This document shows, one piece after another, positions 11,918 through 64,000 of a stretch of 64,000 bases of DNA (the first letter of the stretch is position 1; every line of letters begins with the position of its first letter). A program made the position numbers and the translations under genes. Below the pieces are notes generated by a model that was not told the origin of the DNA, did no database searches, and was given only the letters and a program-made list of their open reading frames with translations. Source of the stretch: an uncultured Candidatus Saccharibacteria bacterium (lineage in GTDB: Bacteria > Patescibacteriota > Minisyncoccia > UBA9983). The DNA lies in assembly GCA_964372755.1 (NCBI GenBank), contig CAYJQX010000001.1, positions 107,382-171,381 of the forward strand, given 5' to 3'.

Positions 11918-12337
11918 ATGAGATTTTTTGAGAGAACTTCTTTATTCGCTTTGCGTTTAGTTACTGGCTGGATGTTTTTTTATGCCGGTATTATCAAAAT
12001 ACTTGATTCAAACTGGACTTCGGCGGGTTATATCAAGGGAGCAAAAGTCTTGCCCGAAGTTTATTCTTTTTTTCTGCAACCAAACATCTTGCCTTTTGTT
12101 GATCTTGCCAACAAATGGGGCCTAACTCTTCTGGGAGTCTCTTTGATACTGGGAGTTTTTGTAAGATTCAGCGCCCCTTTAGGCATGGTTTTAATGGCGC
12201 TTTACTATATTCCGATTATGAATTTTCCCCATCCTAATCCGCATTCTTATATTGTAGACGAACACATTATTTATATCTGCGTCCTTTTTGTCCTTATGAT
12301 ATTTAGAGCCGATAGGGCTTGGGGTGTAGGCAGGTAA
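11918..12337 (+). CDS. DoxX family membrane protein
   Basis: RLVTGWMFFYAGIIKI pattern. Confidence 0.8.
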   Translation: MRFFERTSLFALRLVTGWMFFYAGIIKILDSNWTSAGYIKGAKVLPEVYSFFLQPNILPFVDLANKWGLTLLGVSLILGVFVRFSAPLGMVLMALYYIPIMNFPHPNPHSYIVDEHIIYICVLFVLMIFRADRAWGVGR

Positions 12338-12366: not shown

Positions 12367-12421
12367 CTGAAACACAAAAATAAACTGCTCGAAATTTGAG
12401 CAGTTTATTTTTGTGTTTCAG
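12367..12421. terminator. 24-bp perfect palindrome, bidirectional terminator
   Basis: CTGAAACACAAAAATAAACTGCTC-GAAATT-GAGCAGTTTATTTTTGTGTTTCAG between convergent genes. Confidence 0.7.
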
Positions 12422-12433
12422 AATTAGGGAATA

Positions 12434-12583
12434 TTAATCACAACCGCAATCGCATGAGCCGTCTTCCTTGTGTGAGTGATCGCATTTCTCACAGCACATT
12501 TTTCTTTCTCCTCCACAGCAGTCTCCGGCTTCACCCATAGATTCGCTTCCGCAGTTTTCACACTTATATTTTTTGTCGTCCAT
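12434..12583 (-). CDS. small Cys-rich (metallothionein-like) protein, 49 aa
   Basis: manual translation: MDDKKYKCENCGSESMGEAGDCCGGERKMCCEKCDHSHKEDGSCDCGCD; the ORF track reports a different frame. Confidence 0.55.
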   Translation of the reverse strand: MDDKKYKCENCGSESMGEAGDCCGGERKMCCEKCDHSHKEDGSCDCGCD

Positions 12584-12657
12584 ATTAAGTTTTTATTTAA
12601 AACTAACAATATTCGACCAAATGAAAGCCGTTTTTATTATAACAGATTCGTTTGAGA

Positions 12658-12807
12658 TTACTTACAACCGCAATCGCATGAGCCGTCCTTATTGTGGGCG
12701 TGCTTGCATTTTTCACAGGCCTCTACCCTTTCTTCTTTGCAACAATTACCAGCTTTTTCCCTTGTCTCACTCCCACATTCTCGGCATTTGAATGTTTTTT
12801 CGTCCAT
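12658..12807 (-). CDS. small Cys-rich protein, paralog of 12434-12583, 49 aa
   Basis: manual translation: MDEKTFKCRECGSETREKAGNCCKEERVEACEKCKHAHNKDGSCDCGCK; shares KDGSCDCGC C-terminus. Confidence 0.55.
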   Translation of the reverse strand: MDEKTFKCRECGSETREKAGNCCKEERVEACEKCKHAHNKDGSCDCGCK

Positions 12808-12831
12808 TTTTTATTATATATCTTTTTAAGA

Positions 12832-13827
12832 TTAAACGATTAGGCCGATTTTGTTCTTCACCTCCGTTAAAATAACGGAGGATTTTTCCTCTGCTTTTTT
12901 TGAACCATTTTTCAAAACTGCCAAAATTTCTTCTGTATTTTTTATAAGCTCATCGAATTTATTTTGGATAGGAGAAAGATGGGCGATCACAATTTCCGCT
13001 ACAGCAGTTTTAAAATCGTTGTAAGTTTTCCCAGCAAATTCTTTTTCCAGTTCGGCGATTGTTTTGTCGCCCATAATGCTCGCCATTGAAAGAAGGTTTG
13101 AAATGCCGGGCTTTTTTTCCATATCAAATTTTATCTCGCTTCCCGAATCGGTGGTGGCGGATTTTATTTTTTTGCGTATAGTGTCGGCGTCGCCTGTCAG
13201 GGTAATATAGTTCATAGTGCTTGATGCGGACTTGGACATTTTTTTGGTCGGATCGTCTAACCCCATCACTCGCGCGCCTTGTTTGGTTAGCATTAGTTTC
13301 GGCACGACGAAAGTTTCGCCAAAGCGATTGTTGAATCTTTCGGCGATGGAGCGGGTGAGTTCTACATGTTGGGACTGATCTTCGCCAACTGGCACGTCAG
13401 TGGTGCCATAGAGAAGGATATCCGCGGCCATAAGGGTCGGGTAATTTAAAAGACCGGCCATCACGTTTGCTTGTTTTTGGGCTTTGTCCTTAAACTGGGT
13501 CATGCGTTCAAGTTCACCCAAAGGAGTCATGGTGTTCAATATCCAGCCGAGCTCGGCATGAGCGCTCACATGGCTTTGGACGAATACCAAAGATTTTTCG
13601 GGGTCTATTCCGCAGGCGAGATAGGTGGCCACGGCGCGCAAGGTGTTTTCTCGGAGCTCTTTTGGATCCTGCGGGACGGTGATGGCGTGCTCGTCCACCA
13701 CGCAAAAAATCGTTTCTGCTTCACTTGTGTTCTGGAGCTCCACCCATTGTTTTATGGCGCCTAAATAATTGCCGATATGGATCACTCCCGAAGGTTGGAT
13801 ACCGCTGAAGATCACTTTTTTAGACAT
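12832..13827 (-). CDS. trpS: tryptophan--tRNA ligase
   Basis: class I HIGN-like N-terminus (VIHIGNYLG), KMSKS. Confidence 0.95.
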   Translation of the reverse strand: MSKKVIFSGIQPSGVIHIGNYLGAIKQWVELQNTSEAETIFCVVDEHAITVPQDPKELRENTLRAVATYLACGIDPEKSLVFVQSHVSAHAELGWILNTMTPLGELERMTQFKDKAQKQANVMAGLLNYPTLMAADILLYGTTDVPVGEDQSQHVELTRSIAERFNNRFGETFVVPKLMLTKQGARVMGLDDPTKKMSKSASSTMNYITLTGDADTIRKKIKSATTDSGSEIKFDMEKKPGISNLLSMASIMGDKTIAELEKEFAGKTYNDFKTAVAEIVIAHLSPIQNKFDELIKNTEEILAVLKNGSKKAEEKSSVILTEVKNKIGLIV

Positions 13828-23315: not shown

Positions 23316-24002
23316 ATGTATGTCATGGTCGATGTTGGGGGTTTAAGATACCCAAAAAAGAGTCATCGAAAACAAGTAATCTTGCCTAAATTTTCAGTAC
23401 GACTGTCAGAGTTTTTTGGAATTATGATGGGTGATGGTGGTATAAATAATCTTTGGCAAGCAAATATCACACTGAATTCAATCAAAGACGCTGAATATTC
23501 CAAGCATGTTTCTGTTTTATGTAAGAAACTTTTCGGTATTACGCCGGCCATACGGAAAAGAAAGACAAGTAACACGTTGGTAGTATCAATTACTAGTACG
23601 TCTGTAGTAGATTTTTTGGTTAATAATGGTCTTGTTCGAGGCAATAAACTCAAGGCTGGGTTGAGGATTCCAAAATGGATTTTGAAAAAACCATCATACA
23701 AAAAAGCATGCGTTCGCGGACTTGTAGATACTGACGGATGTATTTTTGTTCATTCTCATAGAGTAGACGGTAAGGCTTACAGAAATGTCGGCCTTTGTTT
23801 TACAAGTTACTCACCGGAGTTAATTATGGAAGTGGCGGATATTCTTGCTGAGTTTGGAATCACAGCACATATTAATAAGCGGAGGCGAAATATTTACTTG
23901 TATCAAGAAAGAATCGTGAGGGAGTATTTAAAGATATTCGGTACTTCAAATAACCGTATAGGGTCTGTGTATAGTAATTGGAGAGATGCGAGAGCGGTTT
24001 AA
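23316..24002 (+). CDS. LAGLIDADG homing endonuclease (double-motif), free-standing
   Basis: two LAGLIDADG-like motifs: FFGIMMGDGGIN and RGLVDTDGCIF; last 7 codons overlap tRNA-Ser. Confidence 0.75.
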   Translation: MYVMVDVGGLRYPKKSHRKQVILPKFSVRLSEFFGIMMGDGGINNLWQANITLNSIKDAEYSKHVSVLCKKLFGITPAIRKRKTSNTLVVSITSTSVVDFLVNNGLVRGNKLKAGLRIPKWILKKPSYKKACVRGLVDTDGCIFVHSHRVDGKAYRNVGLCFTSYSPELIMEVADILAEFGITAHINKRRRNIYLYQERIVREYLKIFGTSNNRIGSVYSNWRDARAV

Positions 24003-29456: not shown

Positions 29457-29475
29457 CATACATTGTCGGTTTCTG

Positions 29476-29948
29476 TATTGTGGTCTATAAGCCGAATTCT
29501 GTCCCCGATTTTAACGTCGGGGCGCGATCATTTATCTTGTTCCGCTTCTCGCGAAACGGAATCCTTGCGGCACATCCGCCGATGAGGCGGATACGGCCTT
29601 GCACCGGGTAGGGTTTACCACTCTTTTCTGTTGCCAAAAAAGAGACTGCGATAGCTTTTAGATTTCTCTCAAAAACATTCGCAAACTTTTCACCTTTCAT
29701 TTCGCGTAGCGAAATGACCCTGAGCGAGACCAACTTCAGGTTGGCACAGTCGAAGGGTATCTCTCGCTCGGGATAATTTCGCTACGCGAAATTAGTATTG
29801 TCTCTGTGACACTTTCCCTCCCTCAGAGATTGCCCTCCGAGGTGACAGGTGTTACCTGTTGCCCATATCTTTTATTGATTACTCAAAAAAGATGGTGTTC
29901 GGACTTTCCTCCCCTCGACAAAGCTCGGGGCGATCACGCGACCACATT
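29476..29948 (-). ncRNA. rnpB: RNase P RNA (bacterial type A-like); boundaries approximate
   Basis: minus-strand matches to universally conserved blocks: GGGAGGAAAGTCCGAACACC (P4 5' strand, CR-I), GGTAAACCCTACCCGGTGCAAGGCC (cf. E. coli GGUAAACUCCACCCGGAGCAAGGCC), ACAGAATTCGGCTTAT (P4 3' strand, cf. ACAGAACCCGGCUUAU); P3 hairpin CCCCGAGC...TCGAGGGG. Confidence 0.8.
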
Positions 29949-29979
29949 AAAGAAACCTAAGTCAATTCTACTACATTAT

Positions 29980-41640: not shown

Positions 41641-44367
41641 TTGAATAATTCAATATCAAAGATTGACAAAGTTTTTTGGTACAGGGAAACAATCCCAAGA
41701 GTTTTAGAAATTCTTAATTCATACGAAAAAGGTTTATCTAATGAAGAAGCGCAAAGACGCCTCCGGATTTATGGACAAAACAAACTTCCAGAAGTAAAAA
41801 CCGATAGTTACTTTTTGATTTTTTTGAGGCAATTCCAAAATCCCCTCATTTATATCCTCTTTTTTGCTGCCGGTATAATTTTTGCAATCGGAGAGATCAC
41901 TGACGGCTTCATTATTTTCACGGTGCTTATTTTTAATGCGATTGTAGGTAGTATTCAGGAAGGAAAAGCTCAAAATACTTTGCTGGCCTTGAAGAAATTT
42001 ACGGAAACTTCAGCGACTGTTTTAAGGGAAGGAAAAGAAATTATAATTTCTGATACAGAAATTGTGCCCGGGGACATTATTCTTCTCCAAGAAGGAGAAA
42101 AGATTCCATCTGACGCCAGAATTATTTTTACAAACACCTTGAAAATTGACGAAGCCAGTTTGACCGGCGAATCTGGACCGGTTTCTAAGACAGAAACAAT
42201 TTTATCGTCAATAAACTCCTCATCTAAAGAGTCTATTATTCCAGTTTCTGATCAAAGAAATATGGTTTTTAAAGGAACTAACGTGTTGAGTGGCCATGGC
42301 ACTGCTTTGGTTGTGGCCACAGGCGTTAATACTGAAATTGGTAAAATAGCCAAAAAAATAAGCAAAATCGACACGGAAATACCGCTTAAAACAAATATCC
42401 GTTATCTCTCACGCATTATTATCATTACGGTGGTTGTAATTAGTCTGATATTGATTGGCTTAGGACTTTCCTCTGGTGAAAGCATAAAGGAAATGTTTAA
42501 AACAGTAGTTGCTTTGTCCGTTTCTATAATTCCCGAAGGTTTACCGATTGTGATGACATTGGTTTTGGCAACAGGCGTAAGAAGAATGTCCAAGAGAAAT
42601 GTTTTAGTGAAAAGATTACAGGCAGTAGAGGCGCTGGGGCAGACTAAGATCATTGCTGTCGATAAAACAGGCACTTTAACCAAAAATGAAATGGTTATAC
42701 AGCGTGTTTTTGTTGATGGTAAAAATTATGAAATTGGCGGAAGTGGTTATGAACCAAAGGGGGATGTTTTTTTGAATGGCGAGATAATTGACCCATTGAG
42801 CCATAATGGTTTGGTTTTAAGCGCAAAAGTGGCCGGATTTTTTACAGGAGCCAAACTTTCCTTTCTGGAATCAGAAGGAATTTGGAAGATTGCTGGTGAT
42901 CCCACGGAAGCGGCTCTTCAAGTTTTTTCCGAGAAAGTGGGATTTCAGAGAGATTTGCTGGAAAAAGAATTGCCAAAAGTTTTTGAAATCCCTTTTGACT
43001 ATAAGAAAAAATTCCATTCGGTGATTCGGCAAATGAAAGGAGAAAATTTTTTGGCTGTTACAGGCGCGCCTGAAAAAGTTTTAGATCTTTGTAAAAATAT
43101 TTGGCATGAAAAAGGGCAGGAACTATTGAATGAGGAAAAAAGAAAGGAATTAGAAATATTTTTTGATGAAATGGCCGGAAAAGGTTTTCGTCTTGTAGCT
43201 TGCGCTATAAATTCTCAAATGAAGGAAAACATAGACCTTGAAGACATTCCACCCCTTAGTTTTCTGGGACTCTTTGGGATGAAAGACGCAGTTCGTTCGG
43301 AGGTAAAAGAAGCCATACAAAAAGTACGAGAAGCAGGTATGCGTCTTGTAATGATCACGGGAGATCATCGTCTTACCGCTTATGCTGTCGCCAGAGAAGC
43401 CGGTCTTTGGCGAGAAGGAGAAAATATTTTAACTGGCGAAGAAATAGACACGATGACTGGTGAGGAACTGAAAGAAAAAATTGCTAAAACAACAGTGTTT
43501 GCCAGAGTTACCCCTGATCATAAATTAAAAATTATTCAAGCTTATCGTAATAGAGGCGAGATAGTGGCAATGACAGGGGACGGGGTAAATGATGCTCCGT
43601 CTCTTGTTGCGGCTGATCTTGGCGTGGCAATGGGTAAGATTGGCACCGAAGTAACAAAAGAGGCTTCTGATATTGTGCTTTTGGATGATAATTTTGCCAG
43701 TATTATTTCCGCGGCGGAAGAGGGGAGGGGTATATACAAAACAATAAAAAAAGTGATGCTCTATCTTTTTTCTACGAGTATGGGCGAAGTTCTTGTGATT
43801 GCCGGCTCTATTCTCTTGGATTTTCCACTCCCGCTTATTGCGGCACAGATCATATGGCTTAATTTTGTAACGGATGGCTTTCTTGATGTTGCTCTAGCGA
43901 TGGAACCAAAAGAAGAAGGATTGATGAGAGGAAAATTTGAAAAACCAAAAAAATGGATAATAGACAACTTAATGGTCAAAAGAATGTTCTTGATGTCTTT
44001 ACCGATGGCTATAGGCACTCTTTTTCTTTTTTCGAAATATTTTGAGAGCGACCTCACGAAGGCTTGGACAATTTCGCTTACAACCTTGGCTGTTTTTCAA
44101 TGGTTCAATGCTTGGAATTGTCGATCGGAGAGGGAGTCTATTTTCAGGATGAATCCCTTTTCTAATAAGTTTCTTTTAGGAGCGACATTTGTGGTAATAT
44201 CTTTGCAGATAATGGCTTTGCACCTTCCCTTTTTGCAAAGAATTTTGCATACTAAGCCACTCCTGTTGTCTGAATGGGTCGCCATTGCTTTAATAGCCAC
44301 ATCAGTTATTCTAATAGAAGAGATAAGAAAAATTTTCTCAAGAAGGAATGTCTTCAAAACTTTTTAA
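41641..44367 (+). CDS. P-type ATPase, P2-type cation (Ca2+/Mg2+-like) transporter
   Basis: DKTGTLT phosphorylation motif, TGDGVNDAPSL, 10-TM architecture, PEGLP. Confidence 0.85.
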   Translation: MNNSISKIDKVFWYRETIPRVLEILNSYEKGLSNEEAQRRLRIYGQNKLPEVKTDSYFLIFLRQFQNPLIYILFFAAGIIFAIGEITDGFIIFTVLIFNAIVGSIQEGKAQNTLLALKKFTETSATVLREGKEIIISDTEIVPGDIILLQEGEKIPSDARIIFTNTLKIDEASLTGESGPVSKTETILSSINSSSKESIIPVSDQRNMVFKGTNVLSGHGTALVVATGVNTEIGKIAKKISKIDTEIPLKTNIRYLSRIIIITVVVISLILIGLGLSSGESIKEMFKTVVALSVSIIPEGLPIVMTLVLATGVRRMSKRNVLVKRLQAVEALGQTKIIAVDKTGTLTKNEMVIQRVFVDGKNYEIGGSGYEPKGDVFLNGEIIDPLSHNGLVLSAKVAGFFTGAKLSFLESEGIWKIAGDPTEAALQVFSEKVGFQRDLLEKELPKVFEIPFDYKKKFHSVIRQMKGENFLAVTGAPEKVLDLCKNIWHEKGQELLNEEKRKELEIFFDEMAGKGFRLVACAINSQMKENIDLEDIPPLSFLGLFGMKDAVRSEVKEAIQKVREAGMRLVMITGDHRLTAYAVAREAGLWREGENILTGEEIDTMTGEELKEKIAKTTVFARVTPDHKLKIIQAYRNRGEIVAMTGDGVNDAPSLVAADLGVAMGKIGTEVTKEASDIVLLDDNFASIISAAEEGRGIYKTIKKVMLYLFSTSMGEVLVIAGSILLDFPLPLIAAQIIWLNFVTDGFLDVALAMEPKEEGLMRGKFEKPKKWIIDNLMVKRMFLMSLPMAIGTLFLFSKYFESDLTKAWTISLTTLAVFQWFNAWNCRSERESIFRMNPFSNKFLLGATFVVISLQIMALHLPFLQRILHTKPLLLSEWVAIALIATSVILIEEIRKIFSRRNVFKTF

Positions 44368-53808: not shown

Positions 53809-54042
53809 ATGAAAAACGTAAAAATTTACTCGACTCCAACTTGTACTTTTTGCAGGGCGGCCAAAGATTTTTTTAAAGCTAATAATGTTGAGTATACAGA
53901 AATAGACGTAGCTCAAGATGAAGAGGCGAGAAAAAATATGTTTGAAATCTCGAAGCAAATGGGGGTGCCGGTGATAGACATCGAGGGGGAAATTATTGTG
54001 GGTTTTAACAAGCCGAAACTTGTTCAAATTCTAGGCCTTTAA
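53809..54042 (+). CDS. glutaredoxin-like protein (NrdH/Grx family)
   Basis: KIYSTPTCTFC CxxC, 77 aa. Confidence 0.8.
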   Translation: MKNVKIYSTPTCTFCRAAKDFFKANNVEYTEIDVAQDEEARKNMFEISKQMGVPVIDIEGEIIVGFNKPKLVQILGL

Positions 54043-54060
54043 TTTTTTTATTTTAATTCA

Positions 54061-55041
54061 ATGTACGATTTTATCATCATCGGCGGAGGACCAGCTGGTG
54101 CTGGCGCGGCCGTTTATGCGGCTAGGAAAAAACTGAAAACTTTGCTAATTACCGAGAGTTTCGGTGGCCAATCTATAGTTTCTGACAATATAGAAAACTG
54201 GATAGGCACGGTAAAAATCTCCGGATATGATTTGGCGCAAGCCTTTGAAAACCACGTGAGGGCTTATCCTCATGACGTGGAAATAAAAATGCCTGAAAAA
54301 GCAGTAGGCATAAAAGAGGCAGAGGGAGGTTTTGAGGTGGAAACAGAAACAGGGGGAAAATACATCGGCAAAATGCTAATGATTGCTTCCGGCGGAAGAA
54401 GACGCAGGCTCGGTGTTCCTGGAGAGGATAAATATGATGGCAAAGGTGTCGCATTTTGCGCCACTTGCGACGCGCCGCTTTTTAAGGGCAAAGAAGTCAT
54501 TGTGGTGGGTTCTGGAAATTCCGCCTTGGAATCGGTAGTCGATCTTTTTCCTTATGCCTCAAAAATCACTCTTCTTATGAGAGGAGAAGAAATGAAAGGA
54601 GATCCGGCTACTCAAGAACACATTACTGAACGAGGAGATATGGTGACAATTTTGAAAAACACGGAAGTGACAGAAGTTTTCGGAGAAGATTTTGTGACCG
54701 GAGTCAAAATTAAAAATAACAAGACGGGAGAAACTGGAGAGATAAAAGCAGGGGGTCTTTTTGTAGAAATCGGTTCTGTGCCGAATTCAGAAATTGTAAA
54801 AGATCTAGTGGAATTAAATAATTTCGGTGAAATCGTCATTGACCACAAGCTTGGCACAACGTCTAAGTCTGGTATTTTTGCCGCCGGAGATGTGACAGAT
54901 GAAGTTTATAAACAAAATAATATCTCAGTAGGAAACGCGGTGATAGCGACGCTCTCAGCATACAATTATTTCTTGAAGACAAGAAAACTCGACCCTAATA
55001 CACGAATTAACTCGAATGATACTAATAGTGTTAAGTCCTAA
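54061..55041 (+). CDS. trxB: thioredoxin-disulfide reductase
   Basis: FAD GGGPAG, redox CATCD, NADPH GSGNSA motifs. Confidence 0.9.
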   Translation: MYDFIIIGGGPAGAGAAVYAARKKLKTLLITESFGGQSIVSDNIENWIGTVKISGYDLAQAFENHVRAYPHDVEIKMPEKAVGIKEAEGGFEVETETGGKYIGKMLMIASGGRRRRLGVPGEDKYDGKGVAFCATCDAPLFKGKEVIVVGSGNSALESVVDLFPYASKITLLMRGEEMKGDPATQEHITERGDMVTILKNTEVTEVFGEDFVTGVKIKNNKTGETGEIKAGGLFVEIGSVPNSEIVKDLVELNNFGEIVIDHKLGTTSKSGIFAAGDVTDEVYKQNNISVGNAVIATLSAYNYFLKTRKLDPNTRINSNDTNSVKS

Positions 55042-61894: not shown

Positions 61895-64000
61895 TTATAA
61901 TTCACGCCTTCGTAGAAGGACGGCGTTAATTGCAACAATAACCGTGCTTGCCGACATAAACACGGCGGCTACTGCCGGATCAAGAATGATTCCCTTGAAT
62001 GCAAGTGCGCCGGCCGCAAGAGGCAGTGCTACCACGTTATAGCCGGTTGCCCAAAACAGGTTCTGGATCATCTTTGTATAGGTCATCTGCGACAATCGCA
62101 CAATCTTCACGATATCCCGAGGATCGTTCCGAACAAGAATGATACCGGCCGATTCAATGGCGACATTTGTACCTGCACCTATTGCAATGCCGAGATCGGC
62201 CTGTGTCAGAGCCGGAGCATCATTGATACCATCGCCGACCATAGCAACTTTGAGACCTCGCTCTTGAAGCGCTTTTACCTTTTCTGATTTCTCCGACGGG
62301 AGTACCCTAGCGAAATACTCATCTATGCCAAGCTCGGAGGCAACCCACTTGGCAACATCTTCGGAGTCGCCGGTGATCATTGCTGTTTTCACACCCCTTT
62401 CTTTGAGCGACTTAATGGCTTCTCGTGACTCTTCGCGGATGATGTCGGCAAGAGCAATGGCACCGAGGAGCTTTTTATCCTTTACCGTAAAGACAACGGT
62501 CTGTCCTTTTTTTCCAGCATCCTGAACCTGATTGGAGATTTCATTGGGGACGGTAAGTCCAAGACCCTCAAGAAGTGCCGGTCCACCAACCATAATCTCC
62601 TGCTCGCCGATCATTGCTTTCACGCCTTTACCTTTGATCGCTTCAAATTTCTTAGGATCTTTGAGTGACAATTTTTGTTCTTTTGCTTTTGCGACAACAG
62701 CACGAGCGATCGGATGTTCCGACAGGGTATCAAGTGAAGCGGCTAATTCTACAACCTCGTCTTTAGTATGTCCGCTAGTGTTCCAAACTTCCACTACTCC
62801 GAATTCTCCCTTGGTTAGTGTTCCTGTTTTATCAAATAACACTGTGTCAATAGTTCGAGCGGCTTCAAGAGCAAGACGCTGTTTTACCAAAAAGCCGTTC
62901 TGTGCCGCTTTGGTTGTAGAGATTGATGCAACAAGCGGCACTGCCAGACCAAGTGCGTGCGGACAGGCAATGACAAGTACGGCTACAAGCCGAGCCACCG
63001 CAAAACCGACGTCAGCTCCGACCATAAGCCATGCAATGAGCGTAATTATGCCTCCACCGACTGCGACTATTGTGAGATAAAGGGCGGCTCGGTCGGAAAG
63101 AATCTGCAAACGCGACTTGGAAGCTTGAGCTTCGGCGACTAAACGCATAACACCAGCAAGAAAGGTTTTCTCGCCGATTTGTGCAACCTTAATTTTCAGT
63201 GCACCATCACCATTTATAGTGCCAGCGATAACTGCGTCACCCTGCTTCTTGGAAACTGGTTTCGACTCTCCAGTAACCATCGACTCGTTTACATCGGAAT
63301 CTCCGTCAATGATCGAGCCGTCTGCAGGAATCTTCGTTCCGGGTTTTACGAGCACAACATCGTTCTCTCGAAGCTCGGAAAGCGAAATAGTTGTTGTTAC
63401 ACTATTACGGATTACTTCTGCAGTATCAGGAAGGAGCTTTGAAAGCTCCTTAAGCGCACCTTGTGCTCCGGAAACTGCACGCATCTCGAGCCAGTGCCCA
63501 AGAAGCATAATGGTGATAAGCGTTGTAAGCTCCCAAAAAAGAGCTTCAGCACCTGCAAAAACCGCATACACACTCCAGAGGTAAGCGGCAGAAATAGCGA
63601 TAGCGATCAGGGTCATCATGCCCGGCAGTCGTCCTTTGATTTCACGCCATGCACCAGCAAGGAATACCCAGCCACCATAGAAAAAGACGATCGATCCTAA
63701 GATCAAAGGGAGATAGTCCGAACCGGGAAAAGTAGGCGGTGACCACTTGAAAATAGTCTCTACGACCTTAGCGTAGAGCACAACTGGAATAGTTAAAATG
63801 AGGCTTATCCAAAACTTTCTAAAAAACATCTTGGTCGAATGACCTGCGTGTTTATCATGATCCTCGTGTCCGACTGATCCCTTTTTCTTTGTAGGCACCA
63901 GCCGCATACCGCATTCAGGGCACATACCAGGATTGTCCTGCATCACCTCTGGATGCATAGGGCAGGTGTACAGATCTTTTGTGTGTTCGTGATGAGTCAT
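61895..64000 (-). CDS. copper-transporting P1B-type ATPase, CPH-motif (CopB/P1B-3-like); start coincides with the window edge
   Basis: TM6 CPH (ACPHALGLAVP), DKTGTLT, GDGINDAPAL, HP dipeptide; His-rich N-terminus with CPMHPE...CPECG metal-binding zinc ribbon. Confidence 0.85.
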   Translation of the reverse strand: MTHHEHTKDLYTCPMHPEVMQDNPGMCPECGMRLVPTKKKGSVGHEDHDKHAGHSTKMFFRKFWISLILTIPVVLYAKVVETIFKWSPPTFPGSDYLPLILGSIVFFYGGWVFLAGAWREIKGRLPGMMTLIAIAISAAYLWSVYAVFAGAEALFWELTTLITIMLLGHWLEMRAVSGAQGALKELSKLLPDTAEVIRNSVTTTISLSELRENDVVLVKPGTKIPADGSIIDGDSDVNESMVTGESKPVSKKQGDAVIAGTINGDGALKIKVAQIGEKTFLAGVMRLVAEAQASKSRLQILSDRAALYLTIVAVGGGIITLIAWLMVGADVGFAVARLVAVLVIACPHALGLAVPLVASISTTKAAQNGFLVKQRLALEAARTIDTVLFDKTGTLTKGEFGVVEVWNTSGHTKDEVVELAASLDTLSEHPIARAVVAKAKEQKLSLKDPKKFEAIKGKGVKAMIGEQEIMVGGPALLEGLGLTVPNEISNQVQDAGKKGQTVVFTVKDKKLLGAIALADIIREESREAIKSLKERGVKTAMITGDSEDVAKWVASELGIDEYFARVLPSEKSEKVKALQERGLKVAMVGDGINDAPALTQADLGIAIGAGTNVAIESAGIILVRNDPRDIVKIVRLSQMTYTKMIQNLFWATGYNVVALPLAAGALAFKGIILDPAVAAVFMSASTVIVAINAVLLRRREL

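Follow-up and report, generated by a model that had tools for sequence, protein, structure and literature searches.

In a stretch of 64,000 nucleotides from contig CAYJQX010000001.1 of an uncultured Candidatus Saccharibacteria bacterium, which we call the window, two very short open reading frames (ORFs) with an extreme Cys content, orfA and orfB, follow the gene trpS on the minus strand. Are these ORFs genes, and what could such small proteins do for the cell? The initial annotation, made from the letters of the window alone, had described them as tandem paralogs of 49 amino acids (aa) and had offered three functions, namely metallothionein-like metal binders, redox proteins or a pair of peptide precursors. 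Judged from their substitution patterns, orfA and orfB are genuine genes under purifying selection, and their products belong to a modular family of Cys/His mini-proteins. It is very likely that the proteins of this family bind metal, and on balance we lean towards a role as metal-thiolate buffers or chaperones in a thiol/metal stress system linked to DoxX.

Reading frame and layout of the Cys-rich pair

Both ORFs are present exactly as they had been translated. The number of Cys residues, originally given as 11–12 for each, has to be corrected to 10 for orfB and 9 for orfA, each protein having in addition 2 His. The two proteins are identical at 29 of 48 positions (60%, BLASTP E 3e-19) and contain a single aromatic residue, Tyr or Phe, each. 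With Cys fractions of 20.4% (orfB) and 18.4% (orfA) they rank first and second among the window's 411 ORFs with a length of 40 aa or more, for which the mean is 2.2% and the 99th percentile 12%.

Two competing ORFs overlap the pair, one of 61 aa on the same strand, which had been considered to be in the wrong frame, and one of 72 aa on the plus strand; both do exist. Between orfA and orfB there are 13, 10 and 23 differences at the first, second and third codon positions, and the proportions of nonsynonymous and synonymous differences (pN and pS, Nei–Gojobori) are 0.23 and 0.73. For orfB and the gene of P0003 at locus L026, whose protein is 76% identical, the differences amount to 9, 8 and 21, and for orfA and its closest relative P0002 (L027/L032) to 6, 8 and 26 with a pN of 0.14 and a pS of 0.88. 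Changes at the third position thus dominate, pN being 0.14–0.23 as compared with a pS of 0.73–0.88 over the comparisons. Because of this excess the frame under selection is the Cys-rich one and not that of the 61-aa or the 72-aa ORF.

Nevertheless gene callers have mostly passed over the pair, as would be expected of chance open frames or untranslated remnants. The exact sequence of orfA is absent from a collection of 15 billion proteins and has therefore been called by no gene caller; the exact TrpS, DoxX and PurD proteins of the same genome are present in this collection. The orfB protein is identical to P0001, which was called in one Logan assembly only, and in this assembly an ORF of 56 aa on the opposite strand was called at the position of orfA. 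A check of the ribosome-binding sites, which the initial annotation had proposed, found no Shine-Dalgarno-like motif at either ORF. This absence carries no weight because the genome is generally without such motifs, which occur upstream of just 3 of the 39 window genes checked. Furthermore, the frame and the ligands are kept in about 125 homologues, the synteny is kept in relatives, the Cys content is extreme, and a strong terminator hairpin follows directly downstream. Taken as chance frames or remnants the pair would also not display a substitution pattern of purifying selection. This pattern together with the conserved ligands effectively refutes such a reading, which we regard as extremely improbable. 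Standard gene calling skips genes as short as these, and a conserved class of proteins has in this way been overlooked by annotation pipelines.

As had been claimed, the pair is co-directional with trpS and lies immediately downstream, since only 24 nucleotides (nt) separate the trpS stop codon from the start of orfA; the spacer between orfA and orfB measures 74 nt. The initial annotation had also placed a perfect palindromic terminator of 24 bp at the end of the pair. There is indeed a strong hairpin at this position, but it is not perfect: the two arms of 27 nt are 96% complementary and fold into a stem of 26 bp with a loop of 7 nt (-37.7 kcal/mol, z = -11.6, none of 200 shuffled sequences being as stable). 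The hairpin has a GC core with an A-tract and a U-tract at its flanks. Lying between the convergent genes orfB and DoxX the structure would terminate both, and it is likely a bidirectional intrinsic terminator. A TATAAT hexamer in front of orfA and the extended -10-like element in front of orfB may drive the expression of the two genes, and the placement of the hexamer would be compatible with a leaderless or very short-leader orfA transcript. A minus-strand promoter consensus scan, which also required a -35 element, reported no promoter around 12636..12644. For the genome as a whole the gene starts in the window suggest that translation initiation is independent of Shine-Dalgarno pairing or leaderless. 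The start regions of the 39 window genes are A/T-rich upstream.

The coordinates of the pair and of its surroundings are collected in Table 1. The slot between trpS and DoxX is conserved in relatives. This follows from two loci: L026, which has a higher GC content, contains trpS, the single small gene of P0003 and a convergent DoxX gene, and L032 contains a near-identical TrpS, about 1 kb of further sequence, the single small gene of P0002 (about 73% identical to orfA) and a convergent DoxX fragment. Both paralog types are present in the window and one each in L026 and L032. The roughly 1 kb between trpS and the small gene in L032 (L032:600-1600) is an insert with an opposite-strand ORF which by eye is NUDIX-like; in the window the second paralog occupies the slot of this insert.

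Table 1. Features of the orfA/orfB locus in the window, and examples of the recurrent operon at loci of relatives
Feature	Position	Strand	Remarks
orfA	12658..12807	-	MDEKTFKCRECGSETREKAGNCCKEERVEACEKCKHAHNKDGSCDCGCK; 49 aa, ATG start; upstream paralog
orfB	12434..12583	-	MDDKKYKCENCGSESMGEAGDCCGGERKMCCEKCDHSHKEDGSCDCGCD; 49 aa, ATG start; downstream paralog
trpS	12832..13827	-	co-directional, upstream of orfA; Pfam tRNA-synt_1b, E 1e-76; TAA stop
DoxX-family membrane protein	11918..12337	+	convergent neighbour of orfB; Pfam DoxX 30.1 bits, cutoff 23.6
orfA N-module core	12739..12786	-	CRECGSETREKAGNCC; CxxC, 10 residues, CC; motif scan
orfA C module	12664..12717	-	CEKCKHAHNKDGSCDCGC; 5 Cys + 2 His; motif scan
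orfB N-module core	12515..12562	-	CENCGSESMGEAGDCC; motif scan
orfB C module	12440..12493	-	CEKCDHSHKEDGSCDCGC; motif scan
Inverted repeat	12367..12421	.	arms 12367-12393 / 12395-12421; between convergent orfB and DoxX
Putative extended -10-like element	12636..12644	-	TGTTATAAT; orfA-orfB spacer, 52 nt before orfB ATG; read from the sequence
Putative TATAAT hexamer	12813..12818	-	ends 5 nt before orfA ATG; read from the sequence
Competing ORF, 61 aa	12424..12609	-	overlaps the pair
Competing ORF, 72 aa	12573..12791	+	overlaps the pair
Recurrent operon, examples	L005:247-7491; L010:4042-11845; L012:2416-8761; L029:2204-7415; L039:1939-6648		

A modular family of Cys/His mini-proteins

Each of the two proteins is built from an N module and a C module. 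A search with the single sequence of orfB recovered only orfB itself, the word index being too coarse for proteins this short. When 1.84 billion representatives (50% clustering) were searched exhaustively with a profile, 23 proteins were obtained, and alignment-seeded searches of a collection of 5.8 billion clusters gave 55 clusters for the N-type query and 71 clusters for the C-type query. The members of these clusters comprise 27–85 aa, have no Pfam domain and are either unnamed or listed as hypothetical protein. Likewise Pfam and NCBIfam scans of orfA and orfB yielded no family above threshold, and our searches of the literature on DUF3179, on metallothionein in Patescibacteria, on desulforedoxin in the Candidate Phyla Radiation (CPR) and on DoxX/ArsR/glutaredoxin/CcdA came upon no account of the family or of the operon with which it is associated (see below). 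The shared Cys layout noticed in the window is kept by about 125 short relatives; the initial annotation had made its claim depend on the conservation of the reading frame and of the Cys pattern in related genomes, and both are conserved.

The 125 family proteins have a median length of 56 aa and on average contain 14.8% Cys, 5.9% His and 1.3% aromatic residues. No variation is seen at Cys8, 11, 22, 23 and 46 of the family alignment, and conservation reaches at least 90% at Cys31, 34 and 44. The N module comprises 22 residues and reads [YF]xCxxCGSxSxxxxGxCCGxER. Its spacer between CxxC and CC is exactly 10 residues long in all 69 proteins (69/69), and positions which are not ligands are conserved as well (S 99%, G 97%, R 90%). 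The C module has 18 residues, CxxCxHxHKxDGxCDCGC, with 5 Cys and 2 His. We collected 95 examples, 78 of them of exactly this length, by their Cys/His pattern, so that only the conservation of the non-ligand residues is informative; in the 78 modules this amounts to K 82%, D 90%, G 90%, D 88% and G 95%.

Further cassettes occur in the family, namely CMACSCPCxMHKEHNHP (M) and VCVACxTGKGEHTH (V), which are joined to N or C modules, and a Met/His-rich tail ...MEHNHKEGETCxVCSAK. The modules are combined in different architectures: N+C as in the window, C alone (24–35 aa), C+C, N+V+C, M+C and N alone. Some members end in natural poly-His tails (L029:6001-6141, ...CDCGCDHAHHHHHQ; L036:2307-2429, ...CDCGCGHDHHHHH, also given as ...GHDHHHHH). 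His-rich N-terminal stretches are present in P0077 and P0104, and the starts of P0077, P0104 and P0070 are rich in His/Asp. Such compact and highly conserved ligand arrays of 18 and 22 residues could interest metalloprotein chemists.

According to the named assemblies the family is carried by Saccharibacteria, Liptonbacteria, Kaiserbacteria, Andersenbacteria, Azambacteria, Minisyncoccia and members of the "Patescibacteria group", and additionally by three metagenome-assembled genomes auto-labelled "Gammaproteobacteria". The species of the window is itself not among the GTDB representatives that were matched. From these matches we conclude that this is an undescribed modular family of Cys/His mini-proteins which is confined almost entirely to Patescibacteria (CPR) assemblies.

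On three metagenome contigs (L040:943-1086, L042:150-293 and L043:6001-6144) the small gene contains an in-frame TGA (MNNQNDQQKTYVCASCGSKAK*EAGTCCG...) where the relatives have Gly. Genetic code 25, in which UGA is read as Gly, is not supported for these loci, since 5 neighbouring conserved genes are free of in-frame TGA; a comparison of ORF lengths did not discriminate. The three genes may be pseudogenes, be subject to local recoding or give a split product.

That the family proteins bind metal is very likely because the N module offers four invariant Cys residues and the C module five Cys and two His. Going further, we infer which metal and how many ions are bound and what the physiological role is. 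We propose that orfA and orfB are two expressed paralogous genes giving rise to soluble metal-thiolate mini-proteins of 49 residues with two ligand modules each. The N module would form a fixed Cys4 knuckle, shaped like a shortened desulforedoxin site, and hold one metal ion, and the seven ligands of the C module could accommodate one or two further ions by means of a bridging thiolate. The proteins would bind and buffer metals of the soft or borderline class (Zn, Cu, Cd, possibly Hg), and under metal or oxidative/thiol stress they would serve as a protein thiol sink next to a DoxX-centred membrane redox system. The family accompanies the membrane protein DoxX, and in the majority of relatives it is also associated with an operon for thiol redox and metal handling that is headed by ArsR.

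Predicted fold of the two modules

The AlphaFold2 model of orfB, calculated with an alignment of 27 sequences, has three short strands, a mean predicted local distance difference test score (pLDDT) of 82 and a predicted template modelling (TM) score of 0.56; blocks over residues 11–30 reach a pLDDT of 88–91. The best fold match in the PDB is desulforedoxin (1dxg_A) with a probability of 0.97 and 31% identity, yet the Foldseek E-value is 0.31 and the match is therefore not significant by itself. Normalised on the target the TM score is 0.64, normalised on the query 0.48, and the root-mean-square deviation is 2.4 over 32 columns. The next-best matches are the desulforedoxin-like domains of superoxide reductases. 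When the family profile was aligned to desulforedoxin with hhalign (E 6.6e-4; desulforedoxin sequence checked against 1dxg/1cfw) the motifs YKCxxCG and CCGE were brought together and C8, C11, C22 and C23 fell onto Cys9, 12, 28 and 29 of desulforedoxin, at the cost of a deletion of 5 residues. For the C module alone the model has a pLDDT of 71, that is moderate confidence, and the PDB fold search with this model found no meaningful neighbour but only fragments of 12–13 residues with E-values of at least 5.9.

With desulforedoxin and the N-terminal domain of desulfoferrodoxin (PF06397; 1dxg, 1dfx) the N module has in common the ligand set of CxxC and vicinal CC, the flanking signature [YF]KCxxCG ... 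CCGE and a similar size. The family differs in the spacer, which in desulforedoxin is 15 residues long, and in that the N module is always accompanied by further Cys/His modules. Pfam Desulfoferrod_N did not match orfA or orfB at E-values of up to 10 and touched only one of the 27 family members (E 0.25). Since both the spacing and the profile fail, we do not file the proteins as members of the desulforedoxin family. Going by the model and the profile alignment, the N module has the appearance of a shortened desulforedoxin site and probably also its mode of binding.

This likeness raises the possibility that the proteins are electron carriers of the desulforedoxin/rubredoxin type, which would shuttle electrons with an Fe(Cys)4 centre in the N module from a flavoprotein (TrxB-like or NDH-2) to DoxX or to the thiol reductases of the cluster, the C module being a second redox or a structural metal site. 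We hold this to be unlikely, although it is a real contender. The top fold matches and the aligned motifs speak for it, as do the strong conservation of non-ligand residues and the fixed spacer, which are expected of a defined redox centre. The spacer itself is, however, of the wrong length for desulforedoxin, the Foldseek and Desulfoferrod_N results are insignificant, and the poly-His tails, the His-rich stretches and the interchangeable tails rich in Cys, His and Met would be unusual for such proteins.

The conserved residues could also form the surface of small regulatory or adaptor proteins of the zinc-ribbon kind, in which a structural zinc ion supports the binding of a partner (e.g., DoxX or the PTP-like protein) or of nucleic acid and which have no part in metal handling. 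Matches to Zn_ribbon_LapB and Zn_Ribbon-type Pfam families were obtained for 14 of the 27 members, and every one of them is below the family threshold (best E 0.0092, Zn_ribbon_LapB). Rubredoxin and zinc-ribbon knuckles share with the family the first knuckle [YF]xCxxCG on a beta hairpin and the small three-stranded sheet, which is predicted here; they differ in that the second pair of the family is a vicinal CC and not CPxCG, and they have no counterpart of the Cys5His2 module. A tight and conserved adjacency to DoxX would suit an adaptor. Seven ligands within 18 residues, doubled C modules and poly-His tails, on the other hand, exceed what a structural zinc ion needs, and the proteins, being acidic to neutral, offer no basic surface to nucleic acid. 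We therefore consider such adaptors improbable.

C2H2 zinc fingers appeared as PDB sequence matches (PRDM9, ZNF568) and were rejected. The similarity is limited to the linker and first knuckle EKxYxCxxCG (query residues 3–20) and is summed over tandem fingers, and neither orfA nor orfB has the canonical CxxC ... HxxxH arrangement.

Genomic neighbourhood, role and known systems

The neighbourhood of the family was derived from Pfam-annotated contigs and from mapping reference proteins with phmmer onto 50 further loci. All counts refer to 23 N-type contexts, many of which are on short contigs and a few of which are redundant. The most constant neighbour is DoxX, which is found at most 700 bp from the small gene in 11 of the 23 contexts. 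Within 6 kb of the small gene we find DUF3179 in 14, CcdA, TlpA and the PTP-like protein in 10 each, ArsR in 9 and glutaredoxin (Grx) in 8 contexts. These genes form a recurrent operon which starts with an ArsR-family HTH_5 regulator, glutaredoxin, CcdA (DsbD_TM), a TlpA-type redoxin and a DUF7128-like zinc-ribbon protein and continues with DUF3179, DoxX, the small gene, in some cases a redoxin, a MerT-like and a TrxB-like gene, and finally a PTP/DSPc-like protein (examples in Table 1). The MerT-like genes, which keep the vicinal CC in the first helix, were found in 3 of the 23 contexts within the same operon, and P1B-ATPase genes lie near the small gene in a few contexts. The family, which spans many lineages of Patescibacteria, is thereby linked to an operon that recurs and is as yet uncharacterised (ArsR, Grx, CcdA, TlpA, DUF3179, DoxX, PTP-like).

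Several of these arrangements would also agree with iron electron carriers. In L005–L007 a redoxin gene follows closely on the small gene, which itself lies 28 nt downstream of a Pyr_redox_2 flavoprotein gene; this flavoprotein is thioredoxin-reductase-like with 323 aa and a CVTC motif. In L008 the small gene is located between a heavy-metal P-type ATPase/DUF305 region and DoxX plus NDH-2, in the order small gene, DoxX, NDH-2. Standalone C-module genes are found inside the same operon (L016, L021, L022, L050, L052, L054) and adjoining MsrA, MsrB and glutamate dehydrogenase (L019, L020, L024, L049). The companion genes Grx, TrxB, TlpA, CcdA and Msr are thiol-redox genes, DoxX has a link to thiols, and the papers found on DUF3179 only list it among the selenoprotein families, with a redox-type UxxC/T motif (PMC9312934). 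Against electron transfer it counts that a flavoprotein adjoins the small gene in only 1–2 of the 23 contexts.

The standalone C-module genes next to MsrA, MsrB and glutamate dehydrogenase (L019:3578-3727, L020:7962-8063, L024:7938-8066, L049:1737-1790) consist of about 30 codons (e.g., MAEGEKGEGTCESCGHMHKEDGTCDCGCSG), which is too short for most gene callers.

The neighbourhood also bears on the third function offered by the initial annotation, according to which the two ORFs would be precursor peptides of a ribosomally synthesised and post-translationally modified natural product rich in Cys. Precursor arrays typically show such tandem duplicates of short Cys-rich ORFs, and at the P0032 locus a Peptidase_C39 gene is located about 2.8 kb away. 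Nothing supports this option, since all annotated contexts lack a maturase: genes of the radical SAM, YcaO, lanthipeptide or cyclodehydratase type are missing within about 8 kb of the pair in the window and likewise at the Pfam-annotated loci of relatives. Moreover, no NCBIfam precursor family was matched, the N terminus is the conserved folded part and not a variable leader, most relatives have a single copy, and the neighbours are redox and metal genes. We think it very improbable that the pair encodes peptide precursors. The metallothionein-like and the redox option both fit the evidence, because of the ligand conservation, the module shuffling, the likeness to desulforedoxin and the clusters with DoxX or headed by ArsR.

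Our preference for a metallothionein- or metallochaperone-like role derives from the composition of the proteins, the shuffling of Cys/His/Met cassettes, which is typical of metal binders, the poly-His tails and the operon headed by an ArsR/SmtB-type regulator. Several observations weigh against it. The non-ligand residues of both modules are unusually conserved for a metallothionein, which speaks for a defined fold or a surface for a partner and not for a simple metal sponge. Desulforedoxin, the closest structural analogue of the N module, is an iron redox centre and not a storage site. The bacterial metallothionein profile PF02069 matched neither orfA and orfB nor 27 relatives at E-values of up to 10. 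Finally, a search of the window for the redox operon found no ArsR, DUF3179, CcdA, TlpA or PTP-like gene, and only DoxX adjoins the pair; a glutaredoxin and TrxB-like gene pair is located 41 kb away (53809-55041, plus strand), and two P-type ATPases are encoded at 41641-44367 (plus strand) and 61895-64000 (minus strand). Where an ArsR gene is present in the cluster, its effector could be a thiol oxidant instead of a metal. Possibly the proteins have a combined role and may act as a redox-linked thiol/metal buffer.

A more far-reaching reading, which we regard as doubtful and rather unlikely, is that the interchangeable mini metal-centre modules, a desulforedoxin-like Cys4 knuckle with the 10-residue spacer and a new Cys5His2 module HxHKxDGxCDCGC, are a dedicated cytoplasmic partner of DoxX in Patescibacteria which links the thioredoxin/glutaredoxin system to the membrane as a relay for electrons, persulfide or soft metals. 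If so, bacteria of very reduced metabolism would possess a protein-based thiol/metal buffer, and no solved structure would offer a counterpart to the metal-binding fold of the C module.

Some further observations concern the window itself and L008. With a score of 975 bits the ATPase at 61895-64000 closely resembles the heavy-metal ATPase beside the family member of L008, so that L008 may come from a close relative of the window genome. The window also contains a bacterial class A RNase P RNA (29472-29949, minus strand, 139.6 bits) and seven tRNA genes (at 23980, 36798, 40912, 41000, 47180, 52701 and 55984).

How does the proposed metal-thiolate buffer or chaperone compare with known metal and thiol systems? 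The thiol relay of the Mer type (MerT, NmerA, the C-terminal CC of MerA) resembles the family in that a vicinal CC and a CxxC suit the hand-off of soft metals. The family differs from it in having no HMA fold, no GMTCxxC motif and no MerA, the flavoprotein being thioredoxin-reductase-like, and most contexts, as well as the window, lack a MerT-like gene.

Closer parallels exist to the bacterial metallothioneins BmtA/SmtA (PF02069). These are likewise small and cytoplasmic with about 9 Cys and 2 His and almost no aromatic residues, and they are folded in a zinc-finger-like manner and not floppy. The composition by which metallothioneins are operationally recognised, that is low mass, high Cys and few aromatics, is also that of our 49-aa pair. 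The order of Cys and His is different, and so is the modular architecture of the family. In smtB-smtA, too, a small Cys/His protein is encoded together with an ArsR/SmtB-type regulator, and the operons of the relatives are indeed headed by an ArsR/SmtB-family (HTH_5) regulator, which is missing near the pair in the window. SmtA has a zinc-finger fold and binds 4 Zn (PMC10612145). If the metal-binding role is true, the family would be the first metallothionein- or metallochaperone-like system proposed for ultra-small, mostly uncultured bacteria.

For DoxX the comparison leads to thiol homeostasis in M. tuberculosis: SseA, a DoxX-family protein and SodA are said to form a complex serving this purpose, as reportedly described by Nambi et al. 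in 2015. With a metal-binding role of the small proteins there would be a handle on the function of the operon and of DoxX in Patescibacteria. Both SseA and DoxX-family proteins of M. tuberculosis have been cited as oxidoreductases associated with the membrane (PMC11614215).

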